NCBI GenBank assembly: GCA_010093815.1
Contig: ML996567.1
DNA length: 64,000 nt
Reading direction: 5' to 3' (one strand)
Origin: Pseudovirgaria hyperparasitica
Lineage: Eukaryota
The notes below the pieces were generated by a model. It was not told the origin of the DNA, did not search any database, and saw nothing but the letters and a program-made list of their open reading frames with translations. Every line of letters starts with the position of its first letter. Within the stretch, counting starts at the first letter, position 1. This document shows, piece after piece, positions 1 to 51,402 of this stretch. The translations under genes were made by a program, and so were the position numbers.

Positions 1-208
1 CAACAACAAGATGGCTATTTCGAACTCGATCGATGATACTGTTACGCCACCCAAGTACATCACTCCTGCCGAACTGCTCTACAGATGGCATGTATGTTTG
101 ACGAACTACCTTGGGTATAACTACAACACACTCACGTGGGTCTTGGGCAACGACAAGCCGCAAAATCCCAGCTGCAAGAAAGTCGATGTGCTAAGGACAT
201 TTGTCTAA
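1..208 (+). CDS. 3' end (partial) of a fungal small secreted/cell-wall-type protein
   Basis: Frame is open from the window edge to TAA at 206-208. The C-terminus LYRWHVC...YNTLTWVLGNDKPQNPSCKKVDVLRTFV resembles a two-cysteine motif I recall from fungal secreted proteins. The start lies outside the window. Confidence 0.6.
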   Translation, partial: NNKMAISNSIDDTVTPPKYITPAELLYRWHVCLTNYLGYNYNTLTWVLGNDKPQNPSCKKVDVLRTFV

Positions 209-26938: not shown

Positions 26939-29665
26939 TATGTCTTGTTTCCTATACCAGATTCTCAACAATACTCTTCATTTTATTCTCCTTCTCTTCT
27001 TGGTGGTGTTCTTTATAAGAGTCCGGTCGTGAGGAGGGTGCGCTATTCAAATGGGGGAGCCCTCAACCCTGGAGAAGTCAGCAGAATTTCTATTGTAGAT
27101 TATGTGTCTATCAGGGCCACAGTGGCAATGCTCGTCTTATATTCAGATATCGCCCTGCAGATGATCATAATTTTTACCTTCCACTGTCTTTTTACGTGCT
27201 CTGGAGATCCCGTGTCAGAAGCTTAAATCTGCTATGTTTTCTGCATCAGACGGTGCATATATTGTGTATTTCTGAGTCTCTTTATAATTGTTCGCAGGGC
27301 TTCTCGCTCATACTAATCCTCCTCTTTGCTTGTCTGTACCACATGCGCCCAGATGCTCGGCCTCTGTCACAGTCGCGCTTGTCAAGTTGTGGATCAGTCG
27401 CTACGCCAAACAAGAAGTAGCAGTGAGTCTGAGAAGAAGAATCGAATATGGATGCTTCAAGCACCGTACCCATCGAACACTATGCCCAATCTATAGGAAT
27501 TCAGGGGTACGCGCTTGCCACGAGAGTAAGAGGTGGATGGAAGATAGCGAATGTATAGCAGCTGAGTGGTTGGAGAATGTTGAGTATTGGCCCTTATCAG
27601 TCACTGTTGGGTCTTCGATGAAAGTGGTCTCGCAGCCAGATGAATATAATCATGTTAAGATGTCATCGCCCGACTAACATGGACAATTTGGATTGTCAAG
27701 CCAATGCTAGCCGCGAAATAGGAAACTTCCCATACGTCGAGGATGGAATTTAAGGATTCTATTGTTTCCTATGTTTTACACGCTACCCATCAAGACAAAT
27801 GTTCTAGGCCGGCACAGTTCTCGCTCTGTACAAACTGCGCTAAGCTCGCAGGAAAGTTTCCACAAACACCACCTTCATACTATTGCACACATTCGCCCAC
27901 ACCTTGATTCAGTCTCCGAACATCGTTTAATGGCTTCCTTGAAGAATAGATATCGCCTAACATTCTTCGAAATGTGCTCCTTGCAGAGCCTTGCCCGGTT
28001 GATCCTCCACTTCTAATCTACCAATTTCAGATGCGCCTTCTTGTACTGGGAACTGGGCAAGTGCTGATGATATCAGTTTCGACTCCTGCGAAGCTTATAT
28101 TGACAAGATAGTCCTCTTCATTCGAGACGCGAATCGGGATCAGCAAAGATGGTCTAGGCCACGCCGACTCGCCGCTGCCAGCGAAGATAATTGAACCCCC
28201 CCGCTTTGATACTGTGCAGACACATAGTATTTCTCTCCAAGAATCCTGCCCAGGTCACGTTAGTACGATGAGCATAGCCACAAGATTGAAAATTGGGGAA
28301 GACTGTCACTCGACGATCCCAGTGTTCAACAGAGCATGGACCCACCCGTATGAGATCATTGATCTTGCCATTACAGCGGACCTTCTCTAGATCGGCACTG
28401 TTAGTAAGTCAAAATTTGTCCTCAGCGCGTGTTAGGCCGCCACAAAGCATAAGACGACTTACATCTAAATAGTAACATCAGCGAACCTAGGACAAACTGG
28501 TTATGGGAATCAATATTCAGGGGAAAGAAAGACGGTTTGAACTTTGACAACTCAGCCCATGGACGTATGGTAGTGGTGGGACAGTGTCTGAAGAGCACTG
28601 AGTCCGGTAACAGGCCGTACGAATGGAAAGATCTTTCATGTTGGCAACCCTGTATATTGGCTGGTCAATTTGTAAGACAGGCTGGGCCAAAATGAAATGT
28701 ATCATAGCAGTGGACTCCACCATGTTCAAGTCGCTGGCACCGAGAAGGAGTTACACAATGGAATGGGGTTACTAATGGGCATATCATCACAAGTTATGCG
28801 TGTATCGAAAAGATGCAAAGCGTACCGTCGCTGACTGTCTGATGGTCTCGATACCTCAAATCTTCAAAGACAACCCAAGTCATCGGGTACCACTCTTCTA
28901 TACTTCAACTGCGGTTTGGAAGATTTGATTTTATAATCGTAGCGTTTTTCGGCTTCGAATCAGGGGCGGACGGGGTACATAAAAGCTAAAGTATCGCCCA
29001 TTAGGCTGAGGAAGCAGATTATAGCTTTGTACTAAATCATATTAAGACTATATAAAGTATCTAGCACAACTTCGAAAACTCCCGCAGAAAAATAAGACCT
29101 CGACGGCCATTTGAATCTTGCAAGCTGTATGTAAGCTTCCGTCTATTCGTAGCGGTACCTATATATCAGCAGCTTATAAATATATTTCAATGCTTATCGA
29201 ACTATGCTCCTGTGTGAGAGTACTCTGTGCGGCCTATGGACAATCCCATATAGATTCTATTTTTCTATGCTATGTGGTGCTGCAATAAACAGCCAGTGAG
29301 CCCGGATATGTTACAGAAGTTCGTAGAAGCGTTGATCTACTATCATCAGCCTATCCCTTGACAGCGTATCTATCGAGGATACGTCACTGACACCGTACAT
29401 AAATGTCAAACACCTCGCTTGCTAGGGGGTCTGTACCACACACGGGTTTCTGCATTTTGCTAGCGCGTTAGTGAATGTTATGACTTGCGCACTCTCCCTA
29501 CCCACCCACCAAACTTTTTCTTGACCTTCAACTTTCTCCTTCGAACCACAAACTCTCCAATCATCGACAACCGGCTAATCTTCTGTTGCATCGTTTGATC
29601 ATCTCTCAATATTTCCTTGCATTCTCTACTTTGCCCACCAGTACAGCTATATCCACCGATCTACC

Positions 29666-30491
29666 ATGTCCACCTCTAGAAACCTTACTCCTGATGTTGA
29701 AGCTCTCATCGAAGTTGGTCTTAAGAGATCTGAGATCAGCACTGAGGTCCGGCATCCTGAAGTCGATAATGAAATCAATCTGGTTTGCATTGGCACCCTG
29801 AGACCATCGACAAGACTGCCCGGTGCGAAAGTCTTTGTGGACATTACAGCAGATACTTCGCTACCTCGTCACTCATACAGTATAGCACATCATGCTAACG
29901 CAATGATGTACGAGATGAAAGATGGTAGTCTCAAAGCCTTAGTACCACAGAAAATTTGGAAGGTGCGAGGAAGAGACATCCACCTAATGAACATCATCAA
30001 ACCCAGCCTCTCAAGCGACTTCCTCGAGGGAGACGCCAAACAACAGCTGGGAATACTTCTGGGTTTCTGTTTTGGGGCTCTCCAGTGGGAGCTCAAAGGC
30101 TTGGAGGGGCACTTTGACGCAAAGAAGTGCCTCTTACAAACCTACAAATTCCTTGAGATAGGAATTTTCGATAAATCTAATGCAGGCTCTGCAGAGCCTT
30201 CTGCTGCCAGCCTAGGCTTGGTATGAGCTTCAAACTCTTTCAGAGACATCACTTACTGACTACATATGATAGGATTCGGAGAATACTGCTGCTGAGTACG
30301 GTGACTCTTCGTCGGCGGACAGGGAGGAGGAGATGGCTGAGTTTGCAGCAGAAGCGCACGCCCACTTTCAAATGATGGTAGCGTCGATCGCAGATGCAGC
30401 CCATGACTTGGATGGAACTACCCAGTCCCAGGTAGCAGCACTCCTCGCTAAGCATGAAGAGGAGCTGGATGAGTTCTTGGACGGTTTGTAG
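29666..30491 (+). CDS. Hypothetical protein, paralog A (~257 aa)
   Basis: Exon 1 29666-30220, intron 30221-30272 (GTATGA...CTGAC...TAG), exon 2 30273-30491 (DSENTAAE...VAALLAKHEEELDEFLDGL*). Aligns with the 33669-34877 protein at both ends. Confidence 0.75.
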
Positions 30492-31359
30492 AGAACTCAA
30501 GCGAGTTGCTAGATGTGTAATACTACTCCCTTGAGGAGGCATAGCGTTGTGTTATCGTATCAAATAGGTATAGATCAATAGACAAGATGATATCTAAACG
30601 CCTTGTGTCATTCAACATGGCGTTATAGCTGTCATAACACTACTTTAAAGGGTTAGCCATGTTATAGTAGTAGTAAAAAACTATAAAGATCAGACCTATA
30701 GAGTATCTGCTACTGTGAGGACACCAAAGATCATAGCTATATGTACTACTAAGAGGTTTGAATCCATTGAATATCATGTAGAATGACAATCTTATATAAC
30801 ATCGAATATCTCTATAGGTGTTGATCACGCTTGAACATCCGAGGAGACAAGACCTATGGAGCATTCCCCTGTACAGTCATATTACGACTCACGCTCCTAC
30901 TAAACACTATGAAGGTTCTACCATGTGAGCTATCACAAAAAATGACGTCTGTATCTAAATTGTGATGTTCTATTGCCGACAAGAGGCACTTAGTTTTATA
31001 CCTTGATGACTAGCTTGACGATTCAGCACTGCCAGAAGGGCCAATACTTCTGTTCAATTTCACGAGTATATCAATTGTTTTGCGTGCAAGTGTTTGTGAC
31101 TCGAGTAGACTAGAGACACTCAGGTGGTATTTCGTAGCTTAGAAACACCTAAATCAAGGATCCATTACCTAGTCTGAAGATCTGTATAAGATACGGATGC
31201 ACACAAAGTGTTATGAAGTCTTATAACATTCGAGATTTGACTACATAGACAGAGAGGCTTTACTGCATCTACTAGAGGATATAGCGATTCACAATATTCC
31301 GCAGAAGGATACCTCGAGTAGATAGGAGGATATTCAAAGATTCTCCATACTATGGAAGT

Positions 31360-32596
31360 CTAGAGTATATTGCCATAGAGCTCGAGGTAGTATAGGTCCT
31401 CTAGGTCAGTGGTAGACATAGGGCTGTCGGAACTGTATGTCCTGACTGCCGGTTGAATGTTGCTGTCCTCACTTATTATGCGTCGGGACTCCATAGTCCT
31501 GATTATGGAACTATCTTCATCAACAGAATGAGGGAATATGGGTCCTGTCCAGCGGTCGTCATTGTCTTGGAGGGCGCCAGACATATGGAGGCTAGCAGGG
31601 GCGGCGTGAGGATCCGGATATGCATCATGACTAGGAGAGCAATTGGGCGGTGCAACTACTCTTGACATTTGAGAGTCTTCCGATGAATAACCTTCACATA
31701 GTCTAGCGAATTCTTCCAGCGTTTGGTCCCGCGCTTGATGTAGCAATACTGTGGCTCCTTTGCCATCGATTCCAAAGAGGATGGAATAGGCGAACAAATC
31801 GGGCACGAAACCATTCGCTTGGACTGCCCCAGCGCGCATGATCCGCTGCTTCAAACTTGTGTATCTTCTCTTCAGGTAGTCTGGCCTGTCAAGACTATCC
31901 ATGTTCCGTAAGGTCATATATGCGCCAGCGAGCCAAAAGAACACCGGGCCATTTTCTCCATCCGCCTTTTGGACAGCTTCCGCTTCTTTCTTCCACAAGG
32001 CATTAACTGTGGCAAAAACTGTTATACAGGTAAGTGCTGGCTCTGACCAGGTGAGTTGTTCATCACTTACGTATGTCCAACACAATGAATGCATCGACCA
32101 TAGCGCGCAGCAATCGTTTGACTGGTTTTTCGAATTCAAGACCTTGGTTTCCCTTTTCCCATTCTTTCAAAACCATTTCGATCTCATAAAACCTGCCCAA
32201 AGCCGTACTCAGCTTGGTTCGCTGTCCTAAATCCAAAGTCTTGAAAGCCTTGAAGCTATATCCTATGAAGTGCTTTAGCTGTTGTTGTCCTGGCGAGAAT
32301 TGCCTCATTGCCTCCGGCTCTTCGATCAACTTAATGCGCTTGACCCTTTTTACCAATCTCTCTCGTGTCATCCCCATCACTATCTGGAGAGCCTCGATAT
32401 TCATCGCCTGATCCTTTTCCGTTTGCTTTGAGGCGTGCTTGAGTACACTGAAATTGAAAGAGGAGTGAGCTTTGACTGCCTCTGCGAGGAGCTTCATAGA
32501 TTTCTTCTGAGTGATGTAGTATGCTACTTTATCATAATAAGCCGGTGGATCTACTGGAAGGTTCTGGTTCCAGAGATCGTCGGGGGGTGATGACAT
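31360..32596 (-). CDS. Hypothetical protein B (~394 aa), helical, with acidic low-complexity tail
   Basis: ORFs 32063-32623 and 31360-32139 are joined in frame by intron 32070-32019 (GTAAGT...ACAG), giving FIVLDIL|FATVNALWKK. First ATG at 32596. No family recognised. Confidence 0.7.
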
Positions 32597-33668
32597 TTCG
32601 TCGTGATTGTGGCAAGGTGACAACCTAAATGGTACCGTATAGAATCAAGCGTAGCTTCGTGAGCGGACCTCTAGGTTCTGGTGATACCTTAGAGTAAACA
32701 GACACTTGAAGATGTTTAACAGTCGCTGAAGTAGAACAACATCTTACGCAGCAAATCGCGCGGTAGATATATCCCAGAGGTCAGCCCTACAAAGCCACCT
32801 CATTCCAATCTAGCAAAGAATCGTGCCCCATACCAATGAAGTATAGCTTTTGTTATTCAATATGCTACTCTTAAAAGTAATATATGGAGTGAGACTGTAG
32901 ATCTGGAAAGAAGAGAGGACTGTGTACCCATGCCATTCGCCACATATGGACTTCAGGCAAGTGAAGCGAGCAGCAGACAAAGAAAGCGTTCTAGCAAGAA
33001 CATTCCCGTGGCGGTGTAACATAGCAAGAAATGAACTATCATGGGATTCTTCATGCGGTCATACAAAACAATGCTGACGACCTAGGAATGCCGTGTAACG
33101 TGACACATCCATACCAAGGACTTCTGGGATGACAGAGATAGGTGAGATAAGTACAAGGATATTCTTTAAGCCACAAATTAGTTCCGCGAATGACTGCTTG
33201 GAGAAGATCCATAGGTATATCAAGCCTCTACGGTTTTTCATAAAGTAATCTGGTAAAGTCACACTGAATTCGCCCGATCAGCCACAGTTCTCGATATCCC
33301 ATGGCTGTTTCTAACCCAAGCATCATGTTCGACATCACAGTCTGTGTACGCTCAAGCTATATTGTCAACTTTTATGTACACTTCTTCGATACTTTCATGG
33401 CTCCGGGCTTATACAGATAGTGTTGAGTGAGAGCTCTGTCTCTATAGCCAGGCATGTTTCAATACGATTCACTCGCAAACCGGTTCACCTGTTCATCTCA
33501 CCGCCTGCTTTTTTACTCACTCTGAATACGGTGTGCAACTGGACTTTAGGATGATTCACTTTCCGCTTGTGGCGAGAAGACTTTAAAACACGTCAACTCT
33601 ATTCTTATCATTATGTTTCAGTACACCTGACTTCTCTACGACCGCAACAGCGACTCCCTGTTCTCAAT

Positions 33669-34877
33669 ATGGATCCTTACGTTCCTATCCTGTCCGAAAG
33701 CGACTGGGATGAGTTGCGAGATACTGTGATTGATATCGATGTAAGAGACTTCCAAGGCATGTTGCTGGTATGTATTGGGAGACTCGTCGATGGCACGATT
33801 TCGGCCGGAAGCAAGGTATTTGCCAACATCTCCGAAGACAATCAGGAAAGATGCAGTTATCTCATCACACGCGGCTACCTGGTATACGAAGACGCCTTCA
33901 CCGGAATCCTCGAGCCCTTCATCATCAGCCGTGTCCGTAAGAGCGGTGGCAAGCTCCCTTTTCGAACTATAGGAATCAACGACGTTGTGGACCCGATTAT
34001 TCCTTGCAAATTCTTGGCTGCTGATATATATCACGCCGGACCCAACATGCGTGCATTGGGCTATCGCATGCTCGAGTATTATCGCTTGTGTGGAAGCGTT
34101 CGTCCAGATGTTGTTGAGATGATGGCCAAAATATACGAGACAAGGGCGCTTACGAAGCCACCTCAGTCCCCAAAGCGCCACGGAGCAAAGTATAATGTAC
34201 AGCCTCAGAAGCGGATCTCTCAGGAGCCTTCTCGCCAGCCTGAAATGACGGCAAGAGAAGTCGTGAGTATAACAAGGTCTAGAAGTGGCGATCACTGATC
34301 GTGACAGATTATCATTGATGACTCGGACGACAACAAGTCGGTGAAGCCTGAACACAATTTTCAATCCGAGCCCACGCTTCTGAGTCGTCTGCGTTCGGTA
34401 TCGTCTTTTTCCATTTCTTCATCAGTCGAGTCTGCTAACACGGAGCGCGTGTACAAGTCCGTTCGCGGTCGTCAAGCTACCCCCGGCGTCGCTCTTCGCC
34501 AGCGTGTACACATGCGAAACCATCTTCCACGATCACTGTCAGGAGTGGGTCCTCTGACCACTCGCGACCGCCAGCCAGTAACACCCGGTCGTCAGCTTCT
34601 CCCAGCACCAGTAATGAGCGATCTTGGCGTCACCACACCTCCAAATTCGCCCCCGACTGTCGAAAACTTAGGTGCCAATGGGCGACCAATGTCCAGAGTT
34701 TTACGCAGACATGTCGACAAAGCTCGCTTCGTGTATTCGGCGCATGAGACATTGAACGACGCATGTCAGCTAATCACCAGTGAGGCTCGGGTGCTTAGTC
34801 TACTTGAGCGTGGAAAGGTTGCAAGGCTCTTGGCTAAGGTGATGGGAGATGTGAGCGCAGCGCTGGAGGATCTCTGA
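33669..34877 (+). CDS. Hypothetical protein, paralog A' (~387 aa)
   Basis: Exon 1 33669-34262, intron 34263-34307 (GTGAGT...CTGAT...CAG), exon 2 34308-34877. Homologous to the 29666-30491 protein. Confidence 0.75.
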
Positions 34878-36294
34878 TGGTCTAGGAATGGTCCGTGTTG
34901 GTTATCAGTTCAATGTCGGACAGTAAGACCCATCGTGGCTTTCTGCTGTTGTAGAGTCTCGAAGGAGGACCTGAGGAGGTATGAATCGTTTGAGATGCAT
35001 GTGTCGCATTTTGCCAGAGCATGATTGTGGAGGGTGCTTCATCATTTGTTCGTATGATGCACATATATGCATTCACACATGTTCTATCGTTTGTTTGATG
35101 AATGCAGACATCAGACAGTCTCAAGTATTTGAGAGATGGTACACCACGTGCGATTAGCATTCAGCTATAAAGTAATTGATATTTCTCACATTTGAATTGG
35201 ACCTACTTGGGAATCTAGTATACATACGTCATAGTAGAACGCGGTGATATTAATGATTGCGGTAAATCCATCCTTTAAGCTAATGTGTACGTAGGTTTGA
35301 TCGCTCTTCTACCTCTTCGGCGGTCGTCTCTTAAGTTTAAATGTGTATTGTAGGTCAATCGCCTGCTCCTTCATTTCCTGCCAAACGTAATGCCACTGAC
35401 CTTTCTCTCCTACTTATGCGTTAACAATTGAGTCTTTCTAGTAAGTTTTAATGTACCATACCTTCTCGTTGCAGACCGCCCATCTCTTCTGGTGGCTTCT
35501 CGCCTGTCCTAAGCTGATGAACTCTTTTATGAACGCGACGCACGGCATGGTGAAAACTAGGCTGACGCAGGAGCTGTAAATTCATGTATCAGTGTCTGTC
35601 ATAGTTCTACGTAGATATGTGGATGGCTTGCATACCCATTCGGCAGCCTTTGTCTGCGAAATGTCAGTCTGCATTGTAGGCTGTGGAGTGGCGAAGAACT
35701 TGCCTCGAACACTGCTAGCCACCACCTCATCTCGAGACGGTGTCTTCAGTGGCTACAGCATTGAGCATGCGAATCGCGATATACTGTTTCTCTTGTATGC
35801 ACAGGGTCGGTGGTCCGTTGATGAACACTGCACCGAACTTCAGTGATATCAGCGTGCCTTGTAGAATGTCCTACACGCTTTATCGATAAGAGGTATTAAT
35901 GCCTTAGGCATCAAAATTGATGGACAGCTTCCAGATAACAGAGTAGGCGGTTTATAGACATTATGAAACTTGAACGGAATATTTCAGGTAGCTTAAATCG
36001 TCTACAAGTTCAAGATTTGGACATCTTTTCGAATTCCACATCGGTATCACTATAGGCAGGCCGGGCTTGTCACGTGAATACGTGATAGTGCAGACGCGCC
36101 TTCTATCCCGCGCCCGGCCCCACGCGCTCCCCTGTGGATCGTCAACGTTCAGAACGAGCAAACGACCTATCGGGAATTTGTTACTATCTGAAACGTCGAG
36201 ATCATGCCGCAGTCATAATAGAGAGGCGTTGTTTCCTGTCTAAGAGGATCATTCACAGCATGCTCCAATAGCATAACGCGACGGAGAGTTTGCA

Positions 36295-49172: not shown

Positions 49173-49948
49173 TCATATGTCAATACTGCCGATCTGCGAT
49201 CTTCGGACGCGCGGCTTCATCTTGCTCGAACCTGTAAGGGGGCCCGAGGAATGTCTAACAAAAATTAATTAATAACATAAGTCAATAAACGAAGTAAGGG
49301 CTTTAAATGAGATAAAACCCACCCTCAAAGCGATGGCCTCACATCCCTCTGACACTGCGCCGTCCCTTGAACCTTCGTACTTGATAAAATAATCATTCTG
49401 GGCATCTTCTGTGCAAACTTTGAACCCTGAAAATCCCAATCAGTATAGGACGTCGCATCACGCAGAATCTGGACTTTGCAGCAATTACCGTTGAACATCG
49501 ATGGCCCTCCATCACTGCTCAGTATTCCATATAACCCATCCCGACTGACACTAATCAAGTCCCAACCGTTATTACCAACAGTCGTGTCGTTGCTAAAAAA
49601 CCATTGCTTCGAGATGAAGTCCCCGTCTGTTTTTTCCGGCCCAAATGCAGCATGAAATCCGTCGGTGATCGCATGTAACCCCTCTGCACTAGCAAGTTGC
49701 AGAGTTCCATTGGTGAGGCGAAAGCCAGTTATAAAGCTTGATGGCCCAATGGCAGCTCCCCAAGTGCCATCTTCCTTGGGCACAATACCGATAGTCCGAT
49801 ACGCTGATGAAGTATTGACAGTACTCCAGATCTGCAAGAAGAACGGATTTTCATGTAGAGTGGTGTCATTAACACTAGATGGATAATCGAAAGCAGAGAC
49901 GCTCATAGCGTGTAGGAATATGGCCATCACGACCAGAGCCGCGGACAT
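49173..49948 (-). CDS. Small secreted protein of unknown function (two C-terminal cysteines)
   Basis: Signal peptide MSAALVVMAIFLHAMSVSA and N-glycosylation sequons. Intron 49488-49427 gives GFKVC...GCEAIALR. A probable second intron is 49322-49255; the last exon is uncertain. Confidence 0.65.
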
Positions 49949-50129
49949 AGTGTCAGGACTTTCGACTTGCGAAGTGACTTTTGATGAACGTAAAATCTTT
50001 CGCGATACAAAACTTTGCCTTTCATGCAGCATTCAGATTCCAAAACCAGCCGCCGGTTAGCCAACGGCTATAAGTTAAATTAACCGTCGAAAGACTGAAA
50101 ACTTATTAGTCTTAGGCTAGATATCGAAA

Positions 50130-51402
50130 TCATGACCCCGCCTGACAGCTCGGACGTATCCGATCGATAACCCGTTTTGATTCGGAACTGGATATCCCTT
50201 CGATATCGATCTTACCTGCAATCACTTGTTGTAGATCAGGTAATACTATTTCTCTCGAAAGTGCCTTGAGATAACTGAGCACCTTCAGCTCGAACGCGCG
50301 CACAGGATAGCTTTCGCTCGGTAAGTGCATTCCCTCACGGACAGCGGCCTCAAGCAGCAAAACCGCCTAATACCACATGAGTAGCCATATTTGACCGGCC
50401 AGTGAGACTAACGTACCTTATTCATGTATCTCTGCCGTATATCTGTCCACATCGGAGACTCTTGTAGAGCCGCTTCATCGTCACAGAAGAGCTCTTGCAC
50501 ACTGGGTCTCTCTTCGAGACTACACGTCCCAAAACCAAACGCAAAAATTTCGTTCAGAGGTTCGGAACCATGTGAGCCGAGATGAAGGTACGATTCCACA
50601 CTTGCTTGAAGCATCCATTCACCAAACAGTTCGAGTAAACGCTCGTTTATCTCCCCTGCGTATCGGTACGTGCGTGCGAGTGTCTGTTCAAGGAATATCA
50701 CCAGAATATCGCGTAGACTCGCATAAACATGTTCGACATCAGACCTTAGGTCATACCTGTGATTCGACTGAAGATCATTCACCAGAAAGCTCACGTATTG
50801 ATAGCGTATCTGCTCCTCTAAAGGGAAGTATTTGCTCATGAGTACATGTGAGTGCACGTAACCATCTTCCCGCTCCTTTAATCGATTTGAGTTACTGCGT
50901 CGGATGTCTTGTAATGCTGAGTCACTTATAAAGTTTGCGCGGTACCTACATGTAAATATTGAGGTGGTATAGAGCAGGCGAAGACGGTATTCCGCGTCAG
51001 TAGGAAGCTTTCGATTTTCTAAAGCTGGCTTCAAGAGACCGAGCCATTCTTTAATCCGATTTAGTCAGCTTGTTTGTTATACCAGGAAGTCTAGCTTATT
51101 GCCAGCAAGACTCGAGGAGTGATCGTACCATGGACTGCTTCGAGTTCTCCCGAGGCGATATTCCAATGCGGCTTTGCGCCGTTCAGCTCATTCTCACGAG
51201 CCTTGATGAGTGATTTGATGCACTTGTAGACCATGTAGTCGAGAATTGTGACGTCCACGTCGAATTGGGTCTTGCTGTCGACCGACCTGAAACAGGTGTG
51301 GTTCTCGAAAAGTTTGATTTCTTCCTCTTCTGTGCCACTCCACTGTTTCAAGGTACTCAGGGTCCCAGTCAGGTCCTGTCTCTTGCGCTTGCCCGTAGCC
51401 AT
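50130..51402 (-). CDS. Hypothetical fungal protein with basic NLS-like start and LisH-like helix
   Basis: Three ORFs linked by GT-AG introns (donors ~51128 and ~50416). GKRKRQ N-terminus, DVDVTILDYMVY, WMLQASVE.YL, YP...FE..V..YL..L...P.L.Q. Confidence 0.65.

Follow-up and report, generated by a model that had tools for sequence, protein, structure and literature searches.

In Rec114/Rec7, an N-terminal PH domain is reported to be followed by a long IDR and by C-terminal helices that dimerise (PMC10393190). In Fusarium, intron retention is described as the most frequent and most often regulated splicing event, and the retained-intron RNAs are reported to largely escape NMD (bioRxiv 10.1101/2021.11.08.467853). 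A definition of the SUMO-interacting motif (SIM) is given in PMC12751080, and failure to detect homologs is reported to account for many lineage-specific genes (PMC7660931). Here, we examined two genes, A and B, in a 64,000-nt stretch of contig ML996567.1 of Pseudovirgaria hyperparasitica, a fungus that parasitises rusts (the window); among the literature matches listed for this species, none concerns these genes. A and B are old tandem duplicates that are constrained at the protein level and, as judged from their sequences, they appear to be another orphan paralog pair, from a fungal lineage that has been thinly sampled.

The coordinates, reading frames, quoted peptides, and both phase-0 GT-AG introns given in a preliminary description of this DNA are present in the sequence (Table 1), but the claim that each gene is spliced at one such intron agrees with the public models only for A. 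Spliced gene A (29666–30491, 257 aa) equals public model P0006, with every letter matching, and its intron has a CTGAC branch motif 14 nt before the intron end. Gene B (33669–34877) yields 387 aa when spliced, but RNA contigs run through its intron and public model P0005 ends at 209 aa with the intron not removed. This candidate intron has a CTGAT branch motif 10 nt before its end and holds two in-frame TGA codons, so that its retention would lead to a stop at 34298 and a product of 209 aa. There are 26 donor/acceptor pairs in B that would restore the frame, and only 34263–34307 combines a GTRAGT donor with a YAG acceptor; consensus-like short introns of this kind were met once in 20,974 non-coding bases. 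The 189 codons of exon 2 are open, as in only 9 of 20000 shuffles, and its coding score of 1.96, the lowest among the four exons, compares with a non-coding maximum of −3.04. All four exons of A and B are coding-like, in the correct frame only. The public 209-aa model of gene B probably lacks a coding exon. An antisense frame of 260 codons (33636–34418) was rejected as a shadow of B, because it has no Met, its codons are in exact register with those of B, and its coding score is lower than that of the sense frame.

Table 1. Positions of genes A and B, their parts, their neighbours, and the RNA contigs over B within the window
Feature	Position	Strand	Remarks
Gene A exon 1	29666–30220	+	185 codons; coding score 2.94
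Gene A beta-rich core	29780–30034 (about residues 39–123)	+	predicted
Gene A helix hairpin after core	about residues 124–168	+	predicted
Gene A intron	30221–30272	+	52 nt, phase 0; donor GTATGA, acceptor TAG
Gene A exon 2	30273–30491	+	short acidic linker, then C-terminal hairpin; coding score 6.97
Gene A C-terminal helical hairpin (49 aa)	30342–30488	+	predicted
Gene M	31360–32596	−	394 aa; without detected relatives; between A and B
Gene M intron	32019–32070	−	joint seen in run X3
Gene B exon 1	33669–34262	+	198 codons; coding score 3.82
Gene B SIM-like motifs, exon 1	residues 5–8 and 21–24	+	motif match
Gene B beta-rich core	33765–34025 (about residues 33–119)	+	predicted
Gene B helix hairpin after core	about residues 124–157	+	predicted; basic linker starts next
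Gene B CDK-type site	residue 167	+	motif match
Gene B candidate intron	34263–34307	+	45 nt (3n), phase 0; donor GTGAGT, acceptor CAG
Gene B exon 2	34308–34877	+	Ser/Pro/Thr/Arg-rich basic linker, then C-terminal hairpin
Gene B SIM-like motif, exon 2	residues 198–205 of spliced product	+	motif match at exon start
Gene B C-terminal helical hairpin (49 aa)	34728–34874	+	predicted
RNA contig X3 over gene B	33447–35408	not given by contigs	gap-free; continues into spliced minus-strand neighbour
RNA contig X4 over gene B	33592–35103	not given by contigs	gap-free; separate from neighbour's contig
Small convergent neighbour of B	35309–35730	−	85 aa, four exons; possible source of antisense read-through

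The paralogy of A and B, proposed in the preliminary description, was confirmed by pairwise alignment with shuffle statistics. The exon 1 products aligned locally with a score of 82, reached by 0 of 2000 shuffles (mean 28.8, maximum 55), and BLASTP of the N-terminal cores gave 31 of 92 identical residues (34%; 34.3 bits; E = 8e−7 for a single comparison). When the last 49 residues were aligned without gaps from the stop codon, 14 were identical and the score of 35 was reached by none of 20000 shuffles, only once among 6903 pairings of ends from unrelated ORFs of the window, and, for each tail, by 0 of 3456 windows from five long window proteins; free local alignment of the tails was weaker (score 43, 1 of 2000 shuffles). 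At the DNA level, blastn found no match at E < 1, and words common to the upstream regions were not above chance. Codon positions 1, 2, and 3 of the core were identical at 45%, 61%, and 26%, with third positions near chance, a bias that the protein-optimised alignment inflates and that is not significant in the tail alone (p = 0.084). Together with the coding-like character of all four exons, this pattern supports the proposed old local duplication with both copies under selection. The two-domain layout survived in part: the N-terminal core and the C-terminal tail are shared, but an extra helix hairpin follows the beta core, and these post-core helices are dissimilar in sequence between A and B (437 of 1000 shuffles reach the score).

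Searches for relatives returned little beyond the pair itself. An N-domain profile run against 1,835,955,588 proteins gave two matches, both to self; in further homolog searches, 1 of 774 candidates was confirmed, again self, and 0 of 256; and the protein clusters of A and B have one member each. Pfam, PHROGs, and NCBIfam scans yielded nothing above cut-off for A, B, or M, and DUF3512 (PF12024) was rejected for A (19 bits against a cut-off of 23.4, E = 0.0014), with no match in B. Sequence searches of the PDB found 0 matches for B exon 1, 0 for profile A1, and 10 chance-level matches for the tail profile (E of 0.68 or worse); the ESM Atlas gave a best value of 0.82 for the B N-domain and nothing usable for A; and of the pattern matches in viral and metagenome contigs (67 and 183), none was confirmed. 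Single-protein searches of the fungus's own genome, whose counts are lower bounds, gave no further copies, and neither did profile searches of the window and of four stretches of 10 kb. Within this 35-Mb genome, A finds B at only E = 0.147, and the B core finds A at E = 0.035. Because the A-B pair itself scores only 34 bits, the blank in the homolog searches carries little weight: such a score would be invisible among 1.8 billion proteins, so that relatives separated from the pair by the A-B distance would be missed. Thus, of the suggested unrecognised family, the absence of a recognisable family held, whereas its membership amounts to two proteins of one genome, with weak homolog detection.

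Two independent low-confidence models (mean pLDDT 49.5 and 38.5) agree on the secondary structure and place, in both proteins, a beta core, a helix hairpin, a disordered linker, and a second helix hairpin in that order; the modelled core of six to seven strands and then a helix fits a PH-like layout. These models did not lead to a fold assignment: Foldseek gave no match at E ≤ 0.001 in the PDB or BFVD, a result obtained on poor models in which the beta core was barely tested, and for that reason we make no claim of a new fold. The highest Z values in the fold searches, 5.2 with 45 residues aligned at rmsd 2.2 and 8.5 with a syntaxin bundle over 115 aligned residues at rmsd 4.2, reflect common helical arrangements. 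Two candidate memberships were rejected. The Tudor/Royal profiles PF00567 and PF06003 match only at other loci of the genome, and the pairwise score against the genome's Tudor domain was reached by 217 of 1000 shuffles for B and 823 of 1000 for A. The best local match of B to that domain is one short strand-like stretch. Neither A nor B has a Pfam match to PF03525 or PF15165 of Rec114/Rec7. A likely Rec114 gene lies elsewhere, on contig C4, with PF03525 in two exons (E = 0.0015 and 0.0022, under cut-off), and profiles A1 and A2 score ≤0.8 bits on it. Stray scores were seen between the B N-domain and the low-complexity linker of this candidate (5 of 1000) and between the A tail and its tail (42 of 1000).

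A 19-residue hydropathy scan found no membrane segment in A or B (maximum 1.25); in the same scan, which is not SignalP, the first 30 residues reach only 0.24 (A) and −0.04 (B), and the idea that they are secreted effectors was dropped on this signal peptide test. A search for classical NLSs gave no match. The SIM-like pattern has two matches in spliced B, none in A, and none in 10,609 control residues, although SIMs are loose motifs and the pattern was composed after the motif had been seen; because A has no match to the strict pattern, it is not a family trait.

Gene M stands head-to-head with B and tail-to-tail with A and is unrelated to both (471–772 of 1000 shuffles reach the score). Repeats around the three genes are only short and chance-like, and no RIP-like signal was found there. 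A, M, and B, all without detected relatives, lie between conserved housekeeping genes, with a 3HCDH gene and APC2 as markers on the two sides, and on the best reading they form a small island of lineage-restricted genes. The 85-aa neighbour beyond B may be Mrx7-like.

RNA over B came from runs X3 and X4, both of one sample and available as contigs only; neither is recorded as RNA, and both were taken as such from their spliced joints. The B intron was crossed without a gap in both runs, in contigs that carry no strand information, and no spliced form of B occurs in the contigs of this sample, so that the expectation of simple splicing was not supported there. All six neighbouring introns covered by RNA were spliced; they measure 50–62 nt, and the B intron is shorter than every one of them. 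The X4 contig over B starts 77 nt before the ATG and ends 226 nt past the stop codon, the shape of a sense mRNA. No stable RNA fold was found over the B intron (z = −0.54), and an Rfam scan gave no match. Neither X3 nor X4 has a contig over gene A, which is no evidence either way on A.

We tentatively favour, as a reading that may well need revision, a tandem adaptor pair in which full-length B is made only upon splicing of a weak intron. A and B would be soluble, non-enzymatic adaptors. In each, the beta core and the helix hairpin would form a folded unit at the N-terminus that binds a target; a disordered linker would come next, and then an amphipathic tail of two helices through which the protein dimerises or docks. 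B would be the long, probably nuclear, regulated copy, with SIM-like and CDK-type sites in a basic linker, and A a short acidic copy sharing both ends with it. Because the B intron is weak and holds stops, the default RNA would give the 209-aa form, which would lack the exon-2 SIM-like site and the tail; full-length B would be a minor fraction or the product of an unsampled condition, such as host contact or a developmental stage. A bolder version, which we regard as very improbable, is that the fold is undescribed and that B acts in the nucleus as an adaptor that reads SUMO, with the minimal intron as a switch that adds or removes a SIM-like site and the dimerisation tail, while A, the short acidic copy, pairs with B via the shared tail and either assists or restrains it in a stage-specific mycoparasite programme.

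The gap-free RNA over B might instead be antisense read-through from the convergent minus-strand neighbour, with the mRNA of B itself lacking or scarce in this sample and normally spliced whenever it is produced; B would then be an ordinary two-exon, condition-specific gene, perhaps repressed by antisense RNA. This accounts for the RNA over B nearly as well as retention does. It would explain why the B intron alone is retained while six others are spliced, and the X3 contig over B is joined to introns spliced on the minus strand (CT..AC joints). Antisense RNAs are also reported to make up 44.6% of 5,481 lncRNAs in Fusarium (bioRxiv 10.1101/2021.11.08.467853). In X4, however, the contig over B ends at 35103, short of the neighbour's contig, which starts at 35243. 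Moreover, a contig that spans two genes shows no single transcript, and convergent genes with overlapping 3′ ends also fuse in assemblies; we consider antisense read-through unlikely, if a real contender. That B is now truly a 209-aa protein, its splicing recently lost, exon 2 a 3′ UTR relic, and the tail kept by A only as roles were split, agrees with the unspliced form in both runs and the public model and with the low coding score of exon 2, but is improbable: the open exon 2, the intact splice signals, and the indel-free tail with its matching stop position favour full-length B, and splicing would have to have been lost very recently.

Two further explanations concern what the genes are. 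A and B may belong to a known or widespread family, such as one that joins a PH-like or SH3/Tudor-like barrel to a helical tail, as rapidly evolving members that escape detection because the lineage is poorly sampled. The poor scores with which the two find each other even within their own genome, and a strand-helix order that fits a PH-like layout, make this conceivable, and it is compatible with the adaptor-pair model; the non-significant Tudor match and the separate Rec114 candidate, with its negligible A1/A2 scores, leave it somewhat doubtful. Still more remote than the loss of splicing is the idea of a conflict island made up of A, M, and B, of the poison-antidote, self/non-self, or meiotic-drive type, in which full-length B would be neutralised via shared domains by the short acidic A or by the short form of B. 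Three genes without detected relatives are indeed grouped between conserved genes, and conflict systems typically comprise paralogous long/short pairs in which one partner is tightly controlled; however, no family match to any such system was found, repeats and RIP-like signal are lacking nearby, the genes are single copy in the genome, and M is unrelated to A and B.

As it stands, the locus provides a corrected gene model of B and one more orphan pair, with function only inferred, and unless a function emerges it bears on no open problem of long standing. Should the splice switch and A-B pairing hold, the adaptor pair would be a compact case of lineage-restricted proteins under intron-retention control, with a beta core that might represent a new fold.

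Set against Rec114/Rec7, A and B are alike in a beta-rich N-terminal domain, a disordered linker, and a short C-terminal helical module, but this is an analogy only, since there is no sequence match, an extra hairpin follows the core, and the tail has 49 aa rather than about 30. Like the SIM-bearing SUMO-reader adaptors reported in PMC12751080, B has, within disordered sequence, hydrophobic cores of four residues with acidic and Ser residues after them; unlike them, it offers a motif match only and lacks both RING and SUMO-like domains. Budding-yeast meiotic introns of the Mer1/Nam8 type (PMC3082912) and Fusarium retention are reported as cases in which a weak, stop-holding intron selects between a short and a full-length product, the scheme proposed here for B, whereas B is known from one unstranded sample in which the spliced form was not seen, and its regulation is only proposed; its donor is consensus-like, and the weakness would sit in the 45-nt length and the CTGAT branch motif. 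Finally, like orphan genes reported from filamentous fungi, some of them locally duplicated (PMC5082898, PMC7660931), A and B are small, clustered, old local duplicates without detected outside relatives, but their region is neither repeat-rich nor decaying, their frames are intact, they are unsecreted, and B has an apparently retained, stop-holding intron.

Genes A and B lie where the preliminary description had placed them and, spliced as proposed there, encode 257 and 387 amino acids. Their similarity at both ends was confirmed. Exon 1 against exon 1 scored 82, a value reached by none of 2000 shuffles (mean 28.8, maximum 55), and BLASTP between the two gave 31/92 identities (34.3 bits). The last 49 residues (the tail) aligned without gaps to the stop codon with 14 identities and a score of 35, which was reached in 0 of 20000 shuffles, by 1 of 6903 control pairs of unrelated ORF ends, and, for the tail of A or B, by none of 3456 windows from five long proteins of the window. 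Because no DNA-level similarity between A and B remained alongside this significant protein similarity, the duplication is old, supporting the earlier proposal of an old local duplication. Judged from their sequences, A and B are a genuine family of two for which no relatives were detected.

Coordinates of the genes, introns, frames, and RNA contigs considered
Feature	Position	Strand
Gene A	29666-30491	+
Intron of A	30221-30272	+
Gene B	33669-34877	+
Candidate intron of B	34263-34307	+
Frame antisense to B	33636-34418	-
X3 contig over B	33447-35408	
X4 contig over B	33592-35103	
Gene M, between A and B	31360-32596	-
Small neighboring gene	35309-35730	-
Its 18-nt microexon	35636-35653	-
Its GC-AG first intron	35654-35703	-
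Region upstream of A	26940-29660	
ORFs of 218-244 codons	15277-16011; 49325-50032; 50408-51064	-
ORF on contig C4 sharing a motif with M	L006 997-2070	-
Rec114-like gene (L017)	G000:C4:704525-707620	

Selection on both copies, as had been suggested, is visible as protein-level constraint. Codon positions 1, 2, and 3 were identical between A and B at 45, 61, and 26% in the beta-rich N-terminal core (p = 3e-5, a value inflated by an alignment made on protein) and at 45, 43, and 31% in the tail (p = 0.084). Under a three-periodic model for which 6,871 codons from the window served as training data, each of the four exons scored as coding, and did so only in its correct frame (2.94 and 6.97 for A; 3.82 and 1.96 for B); the top non-coding stretch of the length of B exon 2 scored -3.04, a contrast favored by the use of the same non-coding set in training. 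The antisense frame, which has 260 codons without Met and is in exact codon register with B, is read as a shadow ORF.

A deep profile built from the two N-terminal domains alone matched only A and B among 1,835,955,588 proteins, and each is the sole member of its own protein cluster. Nothing usable for A or B was obtained from word-based protein searches, Pfam, NCBIfam, PHROGs, PDB sequences, the ESM Atlas, or viral and metagenome contigs, and the domains that the preliminary description could not recognize still match no family. The genome contained no third copy at the sensitivity of these searches, and a profile search found no trace of one in the ~2.7 kb upstream of A; this region has no ORF longer than 133 codons. 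The absence of relatives is weak evidence. Within the 35 Mb genome, A retrieved B only at E = 0.147 and the B core retrieved A at E = 0.035, so relatives this remote would be invisible among billions of proteins. Many lineage-specific genes are explained by a failure to detect their homologs, as described in PMC7660931, and the lineage of this fungus is poorly sampled. The fungus, Pseudovirgaria hyperparasitica, placed in Acrospermales by database taxonomy, is described as a mycoparasite (PMC7082219) of rust sori (PMC3317363). Titles and abstract starts retrieved under the species name included no publication on these genes.

The proposed intron of A is the same in the public model, and the public record is identical to spliced A. 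The proposed splicing of B fared differently. Runs X3 and X4 come from one sample and are regarded as RNA on account of the introns missing from their contigs (6/6 covered introns spliced, in M, the small neighbor, and APC2); over B, each gave one piece that crosses the intron without a gap, and the public B model is an unspliced 209-aa protein. The B intron still looks real from its sequence. Among 26 frame-restoring choices, no other pairs a GTRAGT donor with a YAG acceptor, only one such element turned up in 20,974 non-coding bases, and the open frame of exon 2 spans 189 codons (9/20000 shuffles); that this exon is a recent relic is improbable. The intron is 45 nt long, against 50-62 nt in six RNA-supported introns, and contains two in-frame stops. 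Two points are added here: the B intron is not removed in the RNA at hand, and a coding exon is probably missing from the public B model.

In one of two readings, a sense mRNA keeps the intron; this fits the X4 contig, which has the shape of a B mRNA and is separate from the neighbor's contig. Antisense read-through hiding a normally spliced B fits the X3 contig, which continues into minus-strand introns, and is rather unlikely; the contigs carry no strand and lose minor forms. Neither reading is exotic, because in Fusarium retention is described as the predominant splicing event and the one most often under regulation, and antisense RNAs are common as well (bioRxiv 10.1101/2021.11.08.467853). 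We tentatively favor, as the most likely mode of action, an adaptor pair in which full-length B depends on splicing of this weak intron. A and B would be non-enzymatic, the N-terminal unit binding a target and the two-helix tail dimerizing or docking. B would be the nuclear copy, responsive to SUMO and kinase; A, the short acidic copy, could partner or compete with it through the same ends.

Both products are predicted to be soluble: a hydropathy scan showed neither a signal peptide nor a membrane segment in either. AlphaFold2 models built on two-sequence alignments were poor (pLDDT 49.5 and pTM 0.51 for B residues 1-159; 38.5 and 0.29 for A); at this low confidence, both place a helix hairpin after the core strands, and the A model ends in a linker and second hairpin. 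Fold searches with them returned only common helical arrangements. It is somewhat unlikely, though compatible with the other readings, that A and B are divergent versions of a known fold; Tudor-like similarity was not significant. The tail helices are amphipathic (moments 0.31-0.53). The linker has 41 aa and a net charge of -9 in A, and 179 aa, +14, and 41% Ser/Pro/Thr/Arg in B. B has full CDK-type sites at positions 167 and 290. SUMO-interacting motif (SIM)-like motifs, as defined in PMC12751080, occur at B residues 5-8, 21-24, and 198-201. A strict pattern requiring a hydrophobic core and four acidic/Ser residues, written after the motif was seen, occurs twice in B but neither in A nor anywhere in 24 other ORFs (10,609 residues). 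With the intron kept, B lacks both the 198-201 motif and its tail. A putative splice-switched, SUMO-reading pair with a new fold is very unlikely.

The window is gene-dense and fungal, with SGT1, Gpi1, 3HCDH, APC2, and TPR matches; the repeats in it are all short and of the kind expected by chance, and neither a RIP-like signal nor an Rfam match was found. That the locus is a conflict island is highly improbable. M (394 aa; intron visible in RNA) is unrelated to A and B in pairwise comparison, and no relatives of it were detected, the single match among 412 candidates being M itself. M residues 309-348 share a 40-aa motif (24/40 identical, pairwise E = 1e-12) with an otherwise unrelated C4 ORF, neither having a Pfam match; a weaker match (E = 4e-4) lies in the tail of an Atg9-like gene on contig C19. 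The small neighbor, a putatively Mrx7-like four-exon gene of 85 aa, had no Pfam match with exon 3 alone queried; an RNA joint supports its first intron and microexon. The three further tabulated ORFs had no Pfam match at E <= 0.01.

The fitting category for A and B is that of locally duplicated, taxonomically restricted genes, as described in PMC5082898, from which they differ in lacking decay and secretion. Their layout is reminiscent of Rec114, with its PH domain, disordered region, and C-terminal helices (PMC10393190). This is analogy, not membership: C4 holds a likely Rec114/Rec7 ortholog, judged by two exons each matching PF03525 just under the cut-off, then an extended low-complexity stretch and a short terminal helical part, and A and B have no profile similarity to it. 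The fungus is not known in any sexual form; this gene hints that meiotic genes are kept. The retained B intron, known from the contigs of one sample, resembles in its working the regulated meiotic introns described for yeast (PMC3082912), as a likeness only.
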